The translations under genes and the position numbers were made by a program. Shown piece by piece: positions 1,149 through 8,225 of a stretch of DNA of 8,509 nt; the first letter of the stretch is position 1, and the number at the start of each line of letters is the position of its first letter. The notes under the pieces are model-generated. The model was not told the origin of the DNA and searched no databases. It saw only the letters and a list, made by a program, of their open reading frames with translations. The stretch is from a virus (Duplodnaviria > Heunggongvirae > Uroviricota > Caudoviricetes), in the IMG/VR virus record IMGVR_UViG_648276647_000011; one strand, 5' to 3'.

Positions 1149-1469
1149 ATGACTCAATCCGCATTCATTCCACCAACTCCAGAACAGCGTCGCACCATAC
1201 TCGCCGAGTATGGTTTTGACTGCGAAGAACGCATCAGGGAAGAGAAGTGTAAAAAGATGACCACGCTTTCACGCTCCCGGCGCTGGGAACTGGAGAAGAT
1301 CGGCGCTTTTCCTCCCCGTCACTCTTTGGGGCGTTGTTCATGTACCTGGCTGTTAAGTGATGTTTTGTGGTGGCTACGTAATCCGCCAGTTATTGCCAAA
1401 GTGAATAACCCGTACGAAAACGCCAAAAAGAAAAGGGAGAGAGAATCCGGTAGCGCCAGAGTTGAATAA
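1149..1469 (+). CDS. alpA: AlpA-family phage regulatory protein (Vis/excisionase-like), 106 aa, with a ~35-aa N-terminal extension
   Basis: ATG at 1149 preceded by SD-like GGGGGA (1140-1145). C-terminal half LSRSRRWELEKIGAFPPRHSLGRCSCTWLLSDVLWWL matches the AlpA pattern (LSRST.Y.L...G.FP.P..LG.R.V.W..SEV..W) from memory. An internal ATG at 1257 is an alternative start. Confidence 0.7.
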   Translation: MTQSAFIPPTPEQRRTILAEYGFDCEERIREEKCKKMTTLSRSRRWELEKIGAFPPRHSLGRCSCTWLLSDVLWWLRNPPVIAKVNNPYENAKKKRERESGSARVE

Positions 1470-1600: not shown

Positions 1601-1660
1601 CAACCAGTCAAGGATGTGCATTTAATGCACCTAAAGTCAGCAATAAGAAGTAATAGGCAG
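1570..1660 (-). ncRNA. candidate small RNA (~90 nt) on the minus strand in the alpA-icd intergenic region
   Basis: Minus-strand promoter-like elements: -35 TTGATT (1694..1689), 17-bp spacer, -10 CATAAT (1671..1666). An internal palindromic hairpin GTGCAT-TTA-ATGCAC lies at 1616-1630 and the terminator at 1570-1600. There is no minus-strand ORF here. Purely sequence-based prediction. Confidence 0.3.
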
Positions 1661-2016
1661 AAATGATTATGGCTTTTTTACTCTTTAAAATCAATCACTC
1701 AGCGCAAGTGAGCAAAAATAATGTGCAATATTGCTTGACTCGCTTTTTTGTCATGGCGTATCGTTTGCCCGCACCTCATAAAGCGGGTGCCGGGTTTAGC
1801 AGCCTGAACAATCAAGCGGGTAGCCGCTATATTTCCGTAATGCGGTTTTTTTGTGCCCGTAATTCCACCCTACCCCGTATTATGGCGGGGCGTAATGGGG
1901 GAGCCTTTGCGCTCGCTGGTTCCTTGATTGCCAGTCTGCTAACCCTGTTACGTCCCGCCACCATGTTTAGCAGCGTGCTGGCGAGACTCCGTAAACTTAA
2001 TCAAGGAGCCGCCAAA

Positions 2017-2190
2017 ATGGCTATATCAACACGCCCTGATTTTATCTGGCGCTTTATGCAGTGCCACGGTAAAAATATTCGCCTTCATACCGTTACCGCT
2101 GCCAGTGAGCGCGAAGCGCGCGCCATGCTTCCGGCATCCCGTCTGGTCTTTGTTGCCCGTATCCGTGTCCGGGAGGCGTGCCATGTTTAA
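2017..2190 (+). CDS. small protein, 57 aa, Icd-like (resembles the host cell-division-inhibitor Icd-like family common in P4-like prophages)
   Basis: ATG 2017 preceded by AGGAG (2004-2008). Sequence MAISTRPDFIWRFMQCHGKNIRLHTVTAASEREARAMLPASRLVFVARIRVREACHV; the ...ASEREAR...L.F.AR.RV motif is recalled from Icd-like proteins. The 5' part of the 175-aa track ORF (1663-2016) is treated as non-coding. Confidence 0.45.
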   Translation: MAISTRPDFIWRFMQCHGKNIRLHTVTAASEREARAMLPASRLVFVARIRVREACHV

Positions 2191-2365
2191 GCTCCTTATC
2201 ACCCTGATTAACTACCAGAACGGCGACGTTCGCCAGATGATTCATTCCTGGGAATATCCGACTTATGACGATGCATGGCGTGATGCCTGTCGTATGGCAT
2301 ATTCCCGCAATGACAAACAGGGGCGATTAACCCATAAATGCGCAGTAAAAATCATGGAGGGGTAA
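2183..2365 (+). CDS. hypothetical protein, 60 aa
   Basis: ATG 2183 preceded by GGGAGG (2171-2176). Its start overlaps the stop of the Icd-like gene by 8 nt. Track ORF 2105-2365 trimmed to the RBS-supported start. Confidence 0.5.
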   Translation: MFKLLITLINYQNGDVRQMIHSWEYPTYDDAWRDACRMAYSRNDKQGRLTHKCAVKIMEG

Positions 2366-2367
2366 CG

Positions 2368-2556
2368 ATGTACGAGATTCATATTAAATTGCGTAATGTG
2401 GTAACAGGAGAGGAAGAAAACTTCCACACGATACGTAAATATAAATCAAAAGGAAAAGCGGCAAGGGACGCTATCAGGTATACGGAAGAAATTGCGCCGA
2501 AATATCAATTGCCAGAAGAAGAACTCACAGCATCAGTGGTAAAGGTGAAGAAATGA
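2368..2556 (+). CDS. hypothetical protein, 62 aa, lysine-rich
   Basis: ATG 2368 lies 2 nt after the upstream TAA (2363-2365), with GGAGGGG at 2357-2363. Track ORF 2338-2556 trimmed. Confidence 0.5.
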   Translation: MYEIHIKLRNVVTGEEENFHTIRKYKSKGKAARDAIRYTEEIAPKYQLPEEELTASVVKVKK

Positions 2557-2771
2557 AAAGCCGTTCAATATCCCGTAAAAATAATGGCAGTGGTGAAAAA
2601 CGTTTCTTTGTGTTGGGTTATGCCGTTAATAAACGTGGGTTAACCAAACATGCACATGCAACGGTATACGGAACGGGACCGGGCGAAGCCATACGCCGCG
2701 CAGCCGAAGGGCTGGAAGAGCTGGGAATGACACATTTCAAAGCGTTGAAGGTGACGCAGCTTTCCGCCTGA
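2553..2771 (+). CDS. hypothetical protein, 72 aa
   Basis: ATG 2553 overlaps the upstream stop as ATGA (translational coupling). GGTGAAG purine-rich SD upstream. Confidence 0.5.
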   Translation: MKSRSISRKNNGSGEKRFFVLGYAVNKRGLTKHAHATVYGTGPGEAIRRAAEGLEELGMTHFKALKVTQLSA

Positions 2772-2838
2772 TTCCCGAACTACCAACTGATAACTGAATT
2801 AAATTTATATTTCGATCTTAACGGGTCGGGGAGTTTTT

Positions 2839-3138
2839 ATGTCTGAAAATCAGAATATCCGCAATATATACAAAAAAGAATACGCTGGTTTTTTCACGGA
2901 AGATTCCATTGAGAATCTTGAAGATGTAATAAATGTTATTGCACTCCTTTCAGCATTGACAGGTGAAATTAATACCAGTGAGAGAATGCCAGTGCAAATT
3001 AATGAAATGGAATCATTAACTAACATTCTTTATCGGGAATTACGAGCGATTAAGTCAGGAATGCATACTTCTGGCGGAATTTTTTCATGGCATAGTGCTG
3101 AAACCGCCGGGATTGCCAAAGCAATAAGTAACGAGTAA
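2839..3138 (+). CDS. hypothetical protein, 99 aa; AT-rich orphan gene immediately upstream of the primase
   Basis: ATG 2839 preceded by GGGGAG (2825-2830). Separated from the upstream operon by an AT-rich 67-bp spacer and followed by a hairpin terminator. Composition is clearly lower G+C than flanking genes. No recognisable motif. Confidence 0.6.
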   Translation: MSENQNIRNIYKKEYAGFFTEDSIENLEDVINVIALLSALTGEINTSERMPVQINEMESLTNILYRELRAIKSGMHTSGGIFSWHSAETAGIAKAISNE

Positions 3139-3140
3139 TT

Positions 3141-3180
3141 AATAAAAACCCCACTGCAAAAGGTGCAGTGGGGTGGAGTT
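3141..3180. terminator. bidirectional-looking intrinsic terminator; stronger in minus orientation
   Basis: 10-bp GC-rich stem CCCCACTGCA (3149-3158) / TGCAGTGGGG (3164-3173) with loop AAAGG. On the minus strand it is followed directly by TTTTTATT (reverse complement of 3141-3148). On the + strand the T-run (3176-3179) is separated from the stem and interrupted. Confidence 0.55.
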
Positions 3181-3186
3181 TTATAT

Positions 3187-5856
3187 ATGAAATCTGACAT
3201 CAGAAAAGAGATTATTAACCGTCTTATCCGTGATTACAACTTCAAAGAAGAAAATAACTACCTCCGGTATGGTGTTTGTCCGCAATGTGGAAAGAAAGAG
3301 TTGTTTACCAGCCTTGAAAGGCCGTACATCGTACACTGTGGGCGCGAAAATAAATGCGGTACAGACCTGCTGACCAAAGAACTTTACCCGGATGTGTTTT
3401 CATCATGGTCAGATCGTTATATCAGCACGAAAGACGAGCCATATGCAGCGGCGGCAGCTTATCTTCAGGAAGCGCGCAATATTGCTGTGGGGCCACTGAA
3501 GGGCGCATTTACTCAGGAGCGATACCAGGACAAGGAAAACGGCGAACAGGCCGCTACTGTGCGTTTTACGCTGGCTGACGGCGTGTGGTGGGAGCGCATC
3601 ATAGACCGGCCGGAACGTTTCGCGCGTAAGGCGAATTTTTCCGGCAGCTACAAGGGGTTGTGGTGGGCTTATCCGGGAGCTGATTTAAGCAAGGCCAACG
3701 AAATCTGGATTTGTGAGGGCATCTTTGATGCCATCAGCCTTAACCAGAATGGCATTGCAGCCGTTTCTGTCATGTCTGCCGTGAATTATCCTGATAAGGC
3801 GCTGGAAGAACTGGCAAAGCTGTGCGGAGATAATCCCCGTCCGGTTATTGTGTGGGCGCTGGATAACGGGCGTGCGGGTGAGCGTTACGCGAAAAAACAT
3901 TCAGAACGCAGCGCCGAAGATGGCTGGAGAACGGCGGCGGCGTTACCGGGTAAAAACAGCAATAAACGCGACTGGAATGATTTACACGTCGCCGGAAAGC
4001 TGCGTGGCCATGATGTGAAAAGATACCGTCATTACGGTGATTTATTGCTGGCGAAATCTCCGAGAGATAAGGCGCTGATAATATTTTCCTTTCGTGAGCG
4101 GAAGGAATTTCATTTTACTTTTGATAACCGTGTTTTCTGGTTCAAACTGGACATTGAGCGCTATATGAAGGCTGTTGAGCGTGCCAAGAATGAGCGAAAT
4201 GTTGATGAGGATGAAGCGCGCAAAATTGCACTTAAGGAATCTGGTGCAGTAAAAGAAATCGCAAACTGTAACCCAGCGCCGCTTTATTACATTCGAAATA
4301 ATGACACGGATGAAGCATGGTATTACTTCCGTGTTACGTTCCCGGATGGTGCTACGGTGAAAAACACCTTTACATCAGGACAATTAACATCCTCATCTGA
4401 ATTTAAAAAACGCCTGTTACACGTGGCAAAAGGCGGTATTTATACTGGAACGACTACGCAGCTTGACGCATTAATAAAAAATGACCTTCCCGCAATAAAA
4501 GAGGTTATTGGTCAGGATTTTATCGGATACAACAAGGCGATTGGGGCATGGCTGTTTAATGATATTGCTGTTTACAAGGGAAAAACTTATGAAATCAATG
4601 ACGAGGATTATTTTGAAATTGATGGCATAAACGCAAAACCATTAAGCGAAAAACCCACATTACAGATTAACTACAAAAAACCGGATGAGTTTACAGAGTC
4701 TTGGGTGGAAGATCTCTGGCTGGCTTTTGGTGAAAAGGGAATTATTACCCTGGCTTTCTGGTTGGGCTCCCTGTTCAGCGAACAAATCCGAGATAAAGAA
4801 GAATCCTTCCCCTTCCTTGAAGTCACCGGGGAGCCCGGAACGGGTAAATCAACATTGATTGATTTTTGCTGGCGGTTGTGCGGTCGTGACAACTATGAAG
4901 GCGTTGATCCAACCAAAGGATCAGAGGCGGGCTGGAAGCGTACCTTTGGACAGGTCGCCGGATTACCTGTTGTTCTGATTGAAGCGGACCGGGGAGACAA
5001 TGCGCAAAAAAGAGGTGCGTTTGACTTCGATAACCTGAAAAGTCTCTATAACGGCGGTGGTATCGGCGTTCGTGGTGTTAAGGCCAACAATAACAACACC
5101 TATGACCCGGATTTTAAGGGCGCTATCGTGATTGCGCAGAATGCGCGGGTAAACGCCTCTCCGGCAATTATTGAGCGCCTGATACGTATATACACCGATA
5201 AAAAACGCCATTCACCTGATACCCGCCTGGCGGCGAGACGGCTGGAACTTTACCCCGTCGAGAAGGTATCTGGGTTTATTCACCGAGCGGTAAGTCAGGA
5301 ACGGGCGATTATGCAAACGTTCCTAGAAGTATCTCCAGCTGAAACGGAACGCCTTTGCGGATGCGAAAATATTCGCCATCCCCGCATCGCTAAAAATCAC
5401 GCACAACTTATCGCGCTGGTCAGAGCGCTGAAATGCGTTATTGATATCCCGGATGAATGGCTTGATGCCACATGTCTGGAACTGGAACAAATGGCAACAG
5501 CGCAGGTTAAAGCGGCGGCGGCTGATTTACCGGAAGTGATGGAGTTCTGGGAGGCGTTCGACTTCCTGGACGGCATAACAAAATACGGTGTAAACCACTA
5601 CGGCAAGGGATGCCGTGAGGGGATTGCTATCAGTATTCCGCAACTGGCACAGGCTGCCGCCATTCACCGCGTGGAGATCCGAACTGACCGCGAAATGATT
5701 GAGTTGCTCGGAGCCGGACGTTCCCGACCTTTGACAGGCCGCAAAACCATTCGTAGTGAGGTGTCCAGACAGGCAAACGCCGGAAGAGGGGTCGCCGAGG
5801 CCAGAGAGCCGGAAGTACTGAAATGCCGGATATTCAGTTACAAGGAGGGGCGCTAA
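3187..5856 (+). CDS. phage/plasmid primase-helicase of the P4 alpha type: N-terminal zinc ribbon, TOPRIM primase, P-loop NTPase (helicase)
   Basis: Long ORF. Cys cluster CPQCG...HCGRENKCG (nt 3277-3360). TOPRIM-like ICEGIFDA (nt 3709-3732) and LDNGRAGE. Walker A GEPGTGKST (nt 4828-4854). ATG 3187 with SD GGTGGAG (3172-3178) is preferred over the track GTG at 3163, which lies inside the terminator stem. Confidence 0.88.
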   Translation: MKSDIRKEIINRLIRDYNFKEENNYLRYGVCPQCGKKELFTSLERPYIVHCGRENKCGTDLLTKELYPDVFSSWSDRYISTKDEPYAAAAAYLQEARNIAVGPLKGAFTQERYQDKENGEQAATVRFTLADGVWWERIIDRPERFARKANFSGSYKGLWWAYPGADLSKANEIWICEGIFDAISLNQNGIAAVSVMSAVNYPDKALEELAKLCGDNPRPVIVWALDNGRAGERYAKKHSERSAEDGWRTAAALPGKNSNKRDWNDLHVAGKLRGHDVKRYRHYGDLLLAKSPRDKALIIFSFRERKEFHFTFDNRVFWFKLDIERYMKAVERAKNERNVDEDEARKIALKESGAVKEIANCNPAPLYYIRNNDTDEAWYYFRVTFPDGATVKNTFTSGQLTSSSEFKKRLLHVAKGGIYTGTTTQLDALIKNDLPAIKEVIGQDFIGYNKAIGAWLFNDIAVYKGKTYEINDEDYFEIDGINAKPLSEKPTLQINYKKPDEFTESWVEDLWLAFGEKGIITLAFWLGSLFSEQIRDKEESFPFLEVTGEPGTGKSTLIDFCWRLCGRDNYEGVDPTKGSEAGWKRTFGQVAGLPVVLIEADRGDNAQKRGAFDFDNLKSLYNGGGIGVRGVKANNNNTYDPDFKGAIVIAQNARVNASPAIIERLIRIYTDKKRHSPDTRLAARRLELYPVEKVSGFIHRAVSQERAIMQTFLEVSPAETERLCGCENIRHPRIAKNHAQLIALVRALKCVIDIPDEWLDATCLELEQMATAQVKAAAADLPEVMEFWEAFDFLDGITKYGVNHYGKGCREGIAISIPQLAQAAAIHRVEIRTDREMIELLGAGRSRPLTGRKTIRSEVSRQANAGRGVAEAREPEVLKCRIFSYKEGR

Positions 5857-5858
5857 AC

Positions 5859-6862
5859 ATGCCGATCAGAAAGATGCATGATGGGCGGTGGCTGCTCGAT
5901 ATCAGGCCATGCGGACGTAAAGGGAAGCGCATCAGAAGAATATTTGACAAAAAATCGATAGCTACAGCAACTGAACGGTACATCATAGCGAACGCCGAAA
6001 AGCGCGAGTTTATACAGGGCTATCGTGACCGGAGAACGCTTAGCGATTTACTGGAATTGTGGTGGGTCTATCACGGTCAGCACAGGCGAAAGGCAAACAC
6101 GGATAAACAGCAGCTTGGCAAAATTATTAATGAGCTTGGAGCTGACATGTTTGCGGTGGAACTCGACAAATTAAAAATCATTGCATGGCGATCGCAGAAA
6201 ATTGCAGAAGGATTAAAGCCGTCCTCAGCAAACAGATACATGAACAGATTATCGGGGATGTTTACAGCCCTGAAAAAGATCGGTTTGTGGGATGCAGAGC
6301 ATCCGGTTCGTGGTATTCCTGTTCTTTATGTAAAGCAGCGGGAAATGGCCTTTTTATCAAAAAACGAGGTCACATTGTTGCTTGACGGGCTGAATGGAGA
6401 TCAACGAAGGGTTGCGCTCTTGTGTCTTTGTACCGGAGCCCGCTGGAGTGAGGCCAGCAGATTGTATGGAGAGCAAATAGTTCATAACAGAATAACGTTT
6501 CTGGAAACCAAAAACGGTAGAAAAAGAACGGTGCCTGTGTCGCAGGAAATATGCGATGCCGTAAAAACAAAAGAAACCGGGCGACTGTTTGATGTGAAGT
6601 ACAGAGAGTTTTGCCGGGCATTAAAAAAATAAAACCCGATTTACCGAGGGGGCAGGCTGCGCATGTATTGCGGCATACATTCGCCAGTCACTTTGTGATG
6701 AACGGTGGCAACATTCTTGCGCTACAAAAAATCCTTGGGCATGCGACAATTCAGCAGACTATGGCATACGCACATTTTGCACCGGATTATCTGGCAGATG
6801 CCATGAGATTTAACCCGGTAGCCAACATAGTGATCACCGAAGAAAAAGAGCCAGCAGAGTAA
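5859..6862 (+). pseudogene. int: tyrosine integrase, P2 Int-like, interrupted by a single-base frameshift at an A7 run (6623-6629); may be a pseudogene, a sequencing error or a recoding site
   Basis: Two consecutive ORFs (frame 0 5859-6632; frame 2 6611-6862) that together align without gaps to recalled P2 integrase (e.g. KPSSANRYMNRLSGMFTAL, CTGARWSEASRL, IKPDLPRGQAAHVLRHTFASHF, QTMAYAHFAPDY). Box II HxxR and the presumed catalytic Tyr (nt 6767-6769) are only in the second frame. ATG 5859 lies 2 nt after the primase stop, with AGGAGGGG at 5843-5850. Confidence 0.85.
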
Positions 6863-7110: not shown

Positions 7111-7430
7111 GGGGGGGGATGCGCAAAGCGGTTACAACGGTTACAAATTTAAAATTGCTTATTTTTGTATTATATATCAATATATTATAACTGGTCCGAT
7201 GAGTTACAATAGCGGTTACAACGCGGTTACATGTAACCGTTTTGTTAGGTTACAGGCGGTTACAGGTTAAGTTTTTAATTGATTGATAATAAAGTGCTTT
7301 TTGAAACCTGTAACCGTTGTAACCGCAGTGTAACCGCAAAGCGGTTACAAACAATATCCATTAAAATCATGTTTTTAAGTGGTGTTTTTGACTGTTGTAA
7401 CCGTTGTAACCGCTTTGCGCACCCCCCACC
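7111..7430. repeat. iteron array (heptamer GGTTACA/TGTAACC, 13 exact copies plus 1 variant) bounded by 36-bp inverted repeats; putative replication origin
   Basis: Inverted repeats 7111-7146 and 7395-7430 are 34/36 identical as reverse complements. GGTTACA at 7130, 7139, 7214, 7225, 7248, 7258, 7343 and AGTTACA at 7202. TGTAACC at 7232, 7309, 7318, 7329, 7396, 7405. Perfect palindrome GGTTACATGTAACC at 7225-7238. Hairpin TGTAACCGC-AAA-GCGGTTACA at 7329-7349. AT-rich blocks at 7147-7200, 7265-7308 and 7350-7390. Confidence 0.6.
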
Positions 7431-8042: not shown

Positions 8043-8225
8043 ATGTCTTTCCCTTGCCCGGCCTGTGGCGCTTCAGCCCGCACCCGTGGTCGTTCGTTGG
8101 AAGAACACGAACAAAACATCTACAGAACGTATTACCAGTGCAATAATATTGAGTGTGGGGCTTGTTTTTGTACGCTTGAGTCGTTTGTACGCATTACTAA
8201 GCGCAGGAAGTCGAAAACTTCATAG
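8043..8225 (+). CDS. ogr: Ogr/Delta-family zinc-finger transcription activator (P2 Ogr / P4 Delta-like), 60 aa, single domain
   Basis: ATG 8043 with strong SD. Cys4 pattern C5-X2-C8-X24-C33-X4-C38. ARTRGRS...YRTYYQCNNIEC...FCTLES resembles P2 Ogr (ARTSRYI...ERYHQCQNVNC...F.TYES) from memory. Confidence 0.8.
   Translation: MSFPCPACGASARTRGRSLEEHEQNIYRTYYQCNNIECGACFCTLESFVRITKRRKSKTS

Follow-up and report, generated by a model that had tools for sequence, protein, structure and literature searches.

Four small genes (genes 1–4; positions 2017–2771) lie upstream of the primase-helicase gene in an 8,509-nt stretch of DNA deposited as the Caudoviricetes record IMGVR_UViG_648276647_000011, which is referred to here as the window and to which all coordinates belong. 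Genes 1–4 are likely the promoter-proximal, translationally coupled part of an immunity-controlled early (replication) operon in a phage satellite of the P4/phage-inducible chromosomal island (PICI) type. The region contains RNA genes, a complementarity to the Shine-Dalgarno (SD) sequence of gene 1 that covaries among relatives, a first cistron of the Icd family, junctions with the geometry of coupled genes, and reading frames under purifying selection. In the most economical reading, the four genes form a relay that would pass the on/off state of one SD sequence down to the primase. Our best guess for the products of genes 2–4 is that they are small protein-binding modulators.

Proposed RNA control of the first cistron

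A putative sigma-70-like promoter, with hexamers that every satellite relative keeps and that align to the P7 promoter region, precedes two RNA genes (Table 1). The IsrK-like leader RNA ends in a hairpin and a U-run terminator and contains the upstream C4 targets b1 (TTAGCAG, 1796–1802) and a1 (CAATCAAG, 1809–1816); the Rfam model RF03163 (c4-a1b1) scores 29.5 bits there, which is under its gathering score. The C4-type RNA has the loops a' (GGUUCCUUGAUUG, 1918–1930) and b' (CUGCUAA, 1936–1942), and the RNA region is ~79–81% identical to the c4 region of P1, P7 and P1-like plasmids. The downstream targets b2 and a2 follow, and a2 contains the SD sequence AAGGAG (2003–2008) that serves ATG 2017. 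The predicted a'/a2 duplex is 13 bp long, has an energy of −18.2 kcal/mol and spans this SD sequence.

The pairing elements covary in an alignment of 16 sequences, comprising the window, 13 satellite loci, P1 and P7. The a1, a' and a2 segments change together, with nine different a' sequences that each match their own a1 and a2. Over these nine classes, the cognate a'/a2 duplexes have energies of −14.1 to −20.3 kcal/mol and the non-cognate duplexes of −3.8 to −13.0 kcal/mol, and the two ranges are disjoint. The second loop b', which occurs in two types (CUGCUAA or CUGUCAA), covaries likewise with b1 and b2. Because a' is predicted to pair with a2 over the SD sequence of ATG 2017, ribosome entry onto gene 1 appears to be the controlled step and 2017 the immunity-controlled start. 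Such gating by C4 would give the tight coupling of the downstream genes a specific regulatory meaning, which was absent from an earlier note on this DNA.

Nine loop specificities among only 16 sequences resemble an RNA 'immunity code' that can be read from the sequence, and that could allow co-resident satellites to avoid cross-repression.

Gene 1 matches the Icd-like model NF033153 over its entire length (model positions 1–48 of 48) with an E value of 2.9e-15 and 56 bits (cut-off 25), and it is 45% identical to P7 Icd (E 2e-12). P4 Kil, for which the last 65 residues of the P4 'cI' ORF (open reading frame) served as a 65-aa query, matches the same model with an E value of 1.6e-21. By analogy with Icd and Kil, gene 1 probably inhibits cell division or kills the cell. 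The earlier note had taken the first gene as Icd-like with a start at 2017 and had likened the locus to P4. These claims are borne out by the family matches, by the 8-nt overlap between kil and epsilon of P4, which equals the gene 1/gene 2 junction, and by the RNA target, which fits the start at 2017 better than the 173-aa RefSeq call. Two tandem Icd-like ORFs with an 8-nt overlap are present in other E. coli islands (L016, 4296–5403; L020, 1238–1898), which suggests duplicated or stacked RNA/Icd modules.

The RefSeq 'Icd-like' call of 173 aa starts near 1669 and corresponds to a long ORF that runs through both RNA genes into gene 1. The frame of gene 1 is open for 110–127 codons upstream of its ATG in 13 of 14 satellite loci, the exception being L021 with 29, whereas in P1 and P7 the frame upstream of Icd closes after 11–14 codons. 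The other two frames upstream of the gene 1 ATG close within 5–30 codons in the satellite loci. The extra 116 upstream codons consist of the RNA genes, and their variable columns (33/34/34 by codon position) lack codon periodicity, which excludes the 173–175-aa protein as one ordinary 'Icd-like' protein. Since the frame is kept open without a codon pattern, we take it for an eta-like ORF through which ribosomes pass, rather than for a conserved protein domain. In P4, translation from the immunity-sensitive promoter covers the kil part, and full-length translation of eta from the upstream promoter prevents termination (PMC10111431); by analogy, we infer that the eta/kil arrangement and its logic apply to 1663–2190. 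For annotation, the immunity-controlled start of the Icd-like gene would be placed at 2017 in preference to the 173-aa call, and the 'hypothetical proteins' that follow it are to be treated as real and conserved.

These elements suggest the following mechanism. The promoter at 1735–1764 would drive synthesis of the IsrK-like leader RNA with its targets a1 and b1, and the same transcript would yield the C4-type antisense RNA. The C4 loops would pair with b2 and a2 just downstream, which would cover the SD sequence of gene 1 and block the entry of ribosomes. Because the starts of genes 2, 3 and 4 lie −8, +2 and −4 nt from the stop codon before them, these genes are expected to need ribosomes that come from gene 1 for their translation. 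With gene 1 untranslated, the naked C-rich RNA would be terminated by Rho before the primase, as reported for icd-ant of P1 and kil/timm of P4. If the block is relieved, or if translation of the eta-like ORF takes place on a transcript from upstream, ribosomes would move through genes 1–4 and the operon would reach the primase. In P1, C4 reportedly represses the translation of icd, which leads to Rho-dependent termination before ant, as Citron and Schuster in 1990 and Biere et al. in 1992 are said to have described. A C-over-G skew at 1900–2260 is compatible with a Rho entry region and proves nothing. Coupling through an AUGA junction is experimentally required for the downstream gene in isrK-orf45-anrP (PMC4825925).

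Table 1. Positions of the RNA elements and genes in the window.
Feature	Coordinates	Strand	Length	Details
AlpA-like regulator gene	1149–1469			
Eta-like long ORF	1663–2190	+	175 aa	spans both RNA genes; ends as gene 1
Sigma-70-like promoter (predicted)	1735–1764	+		TTGACT-18 nt-TATCGT; promoter scan; transcription predicted from about 1771, where the IsrK model begins
IsrK-like leader RNA	1771–1852	+		Rfam RF01394 isrK, 52.1 bits (gathering score 50)
C4-type antisense (immunity) RNA	1878–1965	+		Rfam RF01695 C4, 74.7 bits (gathering score 45), E 1.3e-13
Downstream C4 targets	1967–2010	+		b2 TTAGCAG 1967–1973; a2 1998–2010
Gene 1, Kil/Icd-family leader cistron	2017–2190	+	57 aa	ATG 2017, TAA 2188–2190
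Gene 2	2183–2365	+	60 aa	ATG 2183, TAA 2363–2365
Gene 3	2368–2556	+	62 aa	ATG 2368, TGA 2554–2556
Gene 4	2553–2771	+	72 aa	ATG 2553, TGA 2769–2771
Fifth ORF	2839–3138	+	99 aa	67-nt gap after gene 4; same operon; no family match (Pfam, NCBIfam, PHROGs)
Primase-helicase (Toprim + P-loop)	3187–5856	+		phrog_1139 E 6.6e-299; Toprim_2, Toprim_3
Ogr/Delta-type zinc-finger ORF	8043–8225		60 aa	Pfam E 3.3e-11

Gene junctions, selection and predicted folds

Genes 1 and 2 overlap by 8 nt (2183–2190), genes 2 and 3 are separated by 2 nt (2366–2367), and genes 3 and 4 share an ATGA overlap (2553–2556). The energies of the anti-SD duplexes are −7.7, −10.3 and −9.8 kcal/mol for genes 1, 2 and 3, respectively, and only −4.5 kcal/mol for gene 4, compared with a background of −3.1 ± 2.8 kcal/mol over all ATG codons in the window; the weak SD sequence of gene 4 fits a dependence on coupling. 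On the + strand of 2017–2771, ATG-initiated ORFs of at least 50 aa cover 100% of the sequence, and a coverage of at least 90% was reached in only 1 of 2000 dinucleotide shuffles.

The −8/+2/−4 junctions and the lengths of the ORFs are kept in all full-length E. coli relatives that were read, except that gene 2 has 62 aa in L006. This geometry persists although the protein identity falls to 52–61% for gene 3 and to 68–72% for gene 4. The pairwise ratio of nonsynonymous to synonymous substitution rates (dN/dS) is 0.1–0.17 for gene 1, with variable columns of 6/2/14 over the three codon positions, and 0.17–0.5 for gene 3. For gene 4 the ratio is 0.10–0.31, apart from one pair (the window vs L002) with 0.63 and only 6 substitutions, and the variable columns are 25/19/53. 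Gene 2 has a ratio of 0.37–0.6 in most comparisons and of 0.10 between the distant relatives L013 and L014. The fifth ORF, with a ratio of 0.11–0.41, is conserved in all relatives. Members of truncated clusters are rare (~7 of 131 for gene 2, 11 of 169 for gene 3 and 5 of 315 for gene 4).

The earlier note had described four genes between the regulator and the primase, each with its own SD sequence, as a real co-translated operon rather than random ORFs. Their coordinates and junctions were found exactly as it gave them, and the shuffles, the conserved junctions and the dN/dS values rule out chance ORFs and support the operon. An SD sequence of their own is evident for genes 1, 2 and 3 and weak for gene 4, and the interval additionally contains the fifth ORF and the two RNA genes.

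AlphaFold2 predicts a strand-strand-helix-strand (beta-beta-alpha-beta) fold for gene 3, with a predicted local distance difference test (pLDDT) score of 87.5, and a beta-beta-alpha-beta core for gene 4, with a pLDDT of 85.7 and values above 95 in the core; the N-terminus of gene 4 is basic, and its first 12 residues are disordered in the model. These models bear on the view that the act of translating genes 2–4 is all that matters, with ribosomes opposing Rho termination and the peptides themselves being functionless. In P4 it is the translation of kil/eta itself that prevents termination (PMC10111431), the eta-like extension stays open without codon-level constraint, and gene 2 is little constrained within E. 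coli. The view is nevertheless highly improbable, given the purifying dN/dS of gene 3 (0.17–0.5) and of gene 4 (0.10–0.31, bar the low-count pair), the value of 0.10 between gene 2 relatives that share 45% identity, the confident compact folds of genes 3 and 4, and the 41 invariant columns of gene 4.

Indels in gene 4 among relatives are in-frame expansions of an HA dipeptide only. The KHAHAT stretch (about 2648–2662, codons 32–36), which lies at the start of the second predicted strand, becomes KHAHAHAT and KHAHAHAHAT in relatives (P0023, P0025), a hexanucleotide repeat polymorphism. The composition of 2017–3138 is mosaic, with 46–66% G+C in gene 1 vs about 30–48% in gene 3 and the fifth ORF, and relatives carry a 100% identical gene 2 beside a gene 3 of 61% identity; recombination thus appears to break at gene boundaries.

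Several observations weigh against the proposed operon model. The strong SD sequences of genes 2 and 3 would permit initiation that is independent of gene 1. Gene 2 shows 17 nonsynonymous vs 2 synonymous changes between two E. coli lineages, and its variable columns (15/12/14) lack a third-position excess; the nonsynonymous changes are concentrated at residues 14–23, 41–45 and 58–60, and their excess is not significant against the neutral expectation (2 synonymous changes vs ~4 expected). Gene 2 is a real protein gene to judge from its sequence, and its constraint within E. coli appears to be weak or relaxed, or its evolution diversifying. Genes 2 and 3 are truncated or fused in some natural variants (P0007, P0008; L023). 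In L023 (834–1208; E. coli CFSAN027346), one extra G joins genes 2 and 3 in one ORF of 124 aa, and it falls in the G-run (window 2356–2362) that forms the SD sequence of gene 3. The Yersinia enterocolitica relatives (L003/L004, 7715–8026) lack gene 2 and have, behind the Icd-like gene, a gap of 99 nt. Not every one of the four is indispensable. Genes 2–4 have nothing above noise in Pfam, NCBIfam, PHROGs or PADLOC, a library of defence proteins and not of anti-defence proteins; the models of genes 3 and 4 have no Foldseek match with E ≤ 0.001 in PDB and BFVD; and PDB sequence profiles for the families of genes 2 and 4 returned nothing. We also infer translational repression, coupling, Rho polarity, C4 processing and transcription by analogy with studied systems. 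The Yersinia homologue of gene 3 (L003/L004) has 70 aa and overlaps gene 4 by 26 nt.

Candidate roles of genes 2–4 and the fifth ORF

A word-indexed search of 5.8 billion clusters returned 8 clusters for gene 2, 13 for gene 3 and 15 for gene 4, nearly all of them from E. coli; for gene 3, the identity goes down to 52% and most full-length clusters have the same length. A HMMER profile search with gene 4 found 15 representatives among 1.84 billion, and two new ones were traced to contigs, where they occupy the same slot. One of these loci, L013, has the order int, helix-turn-helix gene, ASH/Icd, 63-aa protein, DUF4222, gene 4-like, 94-aa protein, epsilon-like and P4-type primase, with overlaps of 8, 8, 8 and 4 nt, and the second traced contig is a truncated form of that layout. 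BLASTP relates the 63-aa proteins of L013 and L014 to gene 2 (45–46% identical, E 1e-18 to 1e-19) and the 94-aa protein of L013 to the fifth ORF (33% identical, E 5e-11). In other E. coli PICI-type islands, the gene that comes first after Icd can be assigned to the gene 4 family transitively, through its match to the L013 member (E 2e-6). These links indicate that genes 2 and 4 and the fifth ORF are recurrent residents of the slot across satellites with different primases. The earlier note's claim that only the first gene resembles a known family holds for curated families; genes 2 and 4 and the fifth ORF nevertheless have distant relatives in that slot in other satellites.

The gene 2 and gene 3 families align over residues 1–39 (hhalign; 74% probability, E 2.7e-5), and these two genes are probably paralogues that arose as a tandem duplicate. 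Comparisons of gene 4 with genes 2 or 3, and of Icd with genes 2 or 4, are not significant, and on these comparisons an origin of all four genes as tandem Icd paralogues was rejected. A function could not be assigned from the fold, as the matches in PDB and BFVD are only generic small alpha/beta proteins with E ≥ 0.004. The nearest folds are ribosomal eL20/LX, T7 Gp2, PurS, 8g9s_A and many unnamed small phage proteins; 8g9s_A, a weak PDB neighbour of gene 3 (E 0.36), is a 70-residue chain of a type I-C CRISPR-Cas3 entry. In BLASTP comparisons with epsilon, orf151 and cnr of P4, genes 2–4 and the fifth ORF gave nothing with E ≤ 1, the epsilon (PF25738) and cnr (DUF5375) families were likewise not matched by these four proteins, and no match of genes 2–4 to Ant or an antirepressor was found in Pfam, NCBIfam or PHROGs. 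No paper was found in a literature search by RefSeq protein accession. Genes 2/3 and gene 4 most likely act by binding another protein, be it of the helper, of the host or of the replication machinery of the satellite itself, which is the weakest step of the argument.

The slot between kil/icd and the primase is the site of the only known helper-derepression factor of P4. Genes 2–4, perhaps together with the fifth ORF, may be helper or host takeover effectors, as the earlier note suggested for the small genes; they would do the job of epsilon, which derepresses a P2-like helper prophage, or redirect the helper in some other way, a reading that we hold to be possible and somewhat unlikely. It is a proposal on what the proteins do and does not conflict with the regulatory model. 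The Ogr/Delta gene and the P2-family capsid gene of the element and its relatives make a P2-like helper probable, homologues of epsilon ('Derepression', PF25738) were not found in the window or in the gene tables of close relatives, and the genes sit in the slot of P4 epsilon and orf151. The clustered changes in gene 2 (14–23, 41–45 and 58–60) are as expected for an arms-race interface, although their nonsynonymous excess is not significantly off neutrality, and the fold likeness to T7 Gp2 and 8g9s_A is weak and non-significant. Neither in sequence nor, at a significant level, in structure do genes 2–4 resemble epsilon, Ant or another known effector. L013, however, carries relatives of gene 2, gene 4 and the fifth ORF beside an epsilon homologue, so that they are not simple replacements of epsilon.

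We consider it quite unlikely that genes 2/3, gene 4 and perhaps the fifth ORF are new families of beta-beta-alpha-beta mini-proteins that form a helper-hijacking module of epsilon-less, capsid-carrying satellites. If they are, and the module derepresses or redirects a P2-like helper, for example, the loop-clustered changes in gene 2 and the sharp divergence of gene 3 beside identical neighbours would reflect an arms race with a helper target. Genes 2 and 4 and the fifth ORF are in any case reasonable first candidates for helper communication in satellites that have no epsilon.

The position of genes 2–4 immediately upstream of the primase, with which they appear always to be co-transcribed, raises the alternative of accessory or regulatory subunits of satellite replication, analogous to P4 Cnr, which controls copy number via the alpha primase. 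P4-like elements often have small, unnamed families close to their primase (PMC8628076). The primases that occur with relatives of genes 2 and 4 differ in type (Toprim_2-type in the window; Zn-ribbon/Toprim_3/DUF927 in L013; DUF927 or 'DNA primase family' in L016 and L018), which keeps the association with replication and yet, the types being several and unrelated, speaks against one particular primase as the partner. Genes 2–4 lack similarity to Cnr/DUF5375, and gene 3 varies strongly (61% beside a 100% identical gene 2) while the primase is conserved. We regard a replication role as unlikely.

Genes 2–4 also evolve fast, are small, have a narrow distribution and come first in the early operon, as would suit early anti-defence proteins of the anti-restriction or anti-CRISPR kind that are expressed first on entry into a new cell. 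The nearest folds in the viral library are uncharacterised phage proteins of 55–90 aa, and the neighbour 8g9s_A (E 0.36) of gene 3 comes from a CRISPR-Cas3 entry. This evidence is circumstantial only, no significant match to a known anti-defence protein was obtained, PADLOC with its library of defence proteins returned nothing, and such a role is very unlikely. The takeover, replication-accessory and anti-defence readings cannot be ranked firmly with the present data.

The satellite and related immunity systems

The DNA of the region is chromosomal E. coli by its sequence matches: positions 1650–3200 were matched in 108 of 5426 complete genomes, in 58 of these over at least 80% of the length. 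A primase-based scan with one genome per species returned a single Escherichia locus. The closest relative is 99.5% identical over 1650–3200 and is an E. coli element between gcd and hpt. Its genes are, in order, an integrase, a 350-aa protein, an AlpA-like regulator, 'Icd-like', four hypotheticals, the primase, a second integrase-like gene, and then Ogr/Delta, a P2-family capsid protein and MazEF. From this content and order, the element is a phage satellite of the P4/PICI kind, and the Ogr/Delta-type ORF of the window indicates a P2-like helper. The relatives that were read comprise other E. coli islands, an Escherichia sp., Yersinia enterocolitica and one metagenome contig.

Relatives carry a P2-family major capsid gene of their own (L001, 19731–20999; L005, 6161–7210), which is preceded by an unnamed ORF of 236–291 aa. 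The position of the capsid gene differs among satellite relatives, lying either before the Icd operon or after Ogr/Delta, and no sid or psu is annotated in them. Sid and Psu are not among the RefSeq annotations of the whole island L001, which list Ogr/Delta and the P2-family capsid and whose unnamed ORFs were not searched with sid/psu profiles.

In the distal part of the window, the RefSeq start of the primase coincides with ATG 3187, and the protein is collinear with P4 alpha with only remote similarity. A perfect hairpin with an 11-bp stem (ACCCCACTGCA...TGCAGTGGGGT; 3148–3174) lies between the fifth ORF and the SD sequence (GGAG) and ATG 3187 of the primase, and may be an attenuator or a translational control element. 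The second integrase-like gene (5823–6862) is split into ORFs of 269 aa and 83 aa by a 1-nt deletion after 6622, as judged from the intact 334-aa gene of E. coli 600468; either the gene is a pseudogene in the window strain or the deletion is an error of sequencing. Clustered direct and inverted iteron-like copies of GCGGTTACA/TGTAACCGC (7122–7413) lie downstream of both the primase and the integrase-like genes and mark a candidate replication origin.

The immI region of P1 and P7 is close to the window in its regulatory part. A homologous C4 RNA (74.7 bits, ~80% nucleotide identity) lies on the same strand upstream of the first cistron, the targets are duplicated before and after c4 with a2 on the SD sequence of an Icd-family first cistron, and covarying loop and target sequences set the specificity. 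The next gene overlaps the stop of Icd, the annotation of P7 being c4, icd and ant1, the last with a 4-nt overlap with icd. In contrast, the window continues with three unrelated mini-proteins, the fifth ORF and the primase instead of the Ant1/Ant2 antirepressor. The P7 sequence upstream of the promoter, which holds an annotated C1 operator, does not align with the window, and the Icd frame of P1 and P7 lacks the long upstream extension.

The left operon of P4 consists of ORF88/vis, eta/kil with the CI RNA, epsilon, orf151, cnr and alpha. It shares with the window an AlpA/Vis-like gene upstream, an immunity RNA of the same Rfam clan inside a long ORF whose terminal part is the Icd-like Kil, and a string of small genes that ends at a primase-helicase. 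Overlaps of 8 nt join the kil-containing ORF to epsilon and epsilon to orf151; an 8-nt overlap between Icd and the next gene is also present in satellites whose downstream genes are unrelated to gene 2. However, the window has no homologues of epsilon, orf151 or cnr between gene 1 and the primase, P4 has no gene 2, gene 4 or fifth ORF, the RNA of the window is closer to P1 C4 than to P4 CI, and its primase is only remotely like alpha. P4-like satellites are defined by int, psu, delta, sid and alpA together with epsilon and alpha (PMC8628076), whereas the annotation of the full island lists neither sid nor psu, and relatives have a P2-family capsid gene instead.

In isrK-orf45-anrP of Gifsy-1 (Salmonella), an IsrK-type leader with a terminator is likewise followed by a small upstream ORF, whose RNA-controlled translation the next gene requires (PMC4825925). 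There, translation is activated in trans by the short IsrK RNA, and an antirepressor is encoded downstream, whereas the window contains a separate C4 RNA, and its complementarity points to repression at the SD sequence. The Gram-negative/hpt PICIs, with their Integration, Bro, Replication and Late zones, resemble the element in the succession of int, AlpA, an RNA/Icd zone, primase and late genes. PICIs at hpt, and C4/isrK matches in several Gram-negative PICIs, have been reported (PMC10111431); genes 2–4 are not described in that study of 49 hpt PICIs. The cargo of the operon is uncharacterised. C4/isrK homologues in PICIs were noted before, and current views are not overturned, since P1, P4 and IsrK already provide known precedents for the regulatory design.

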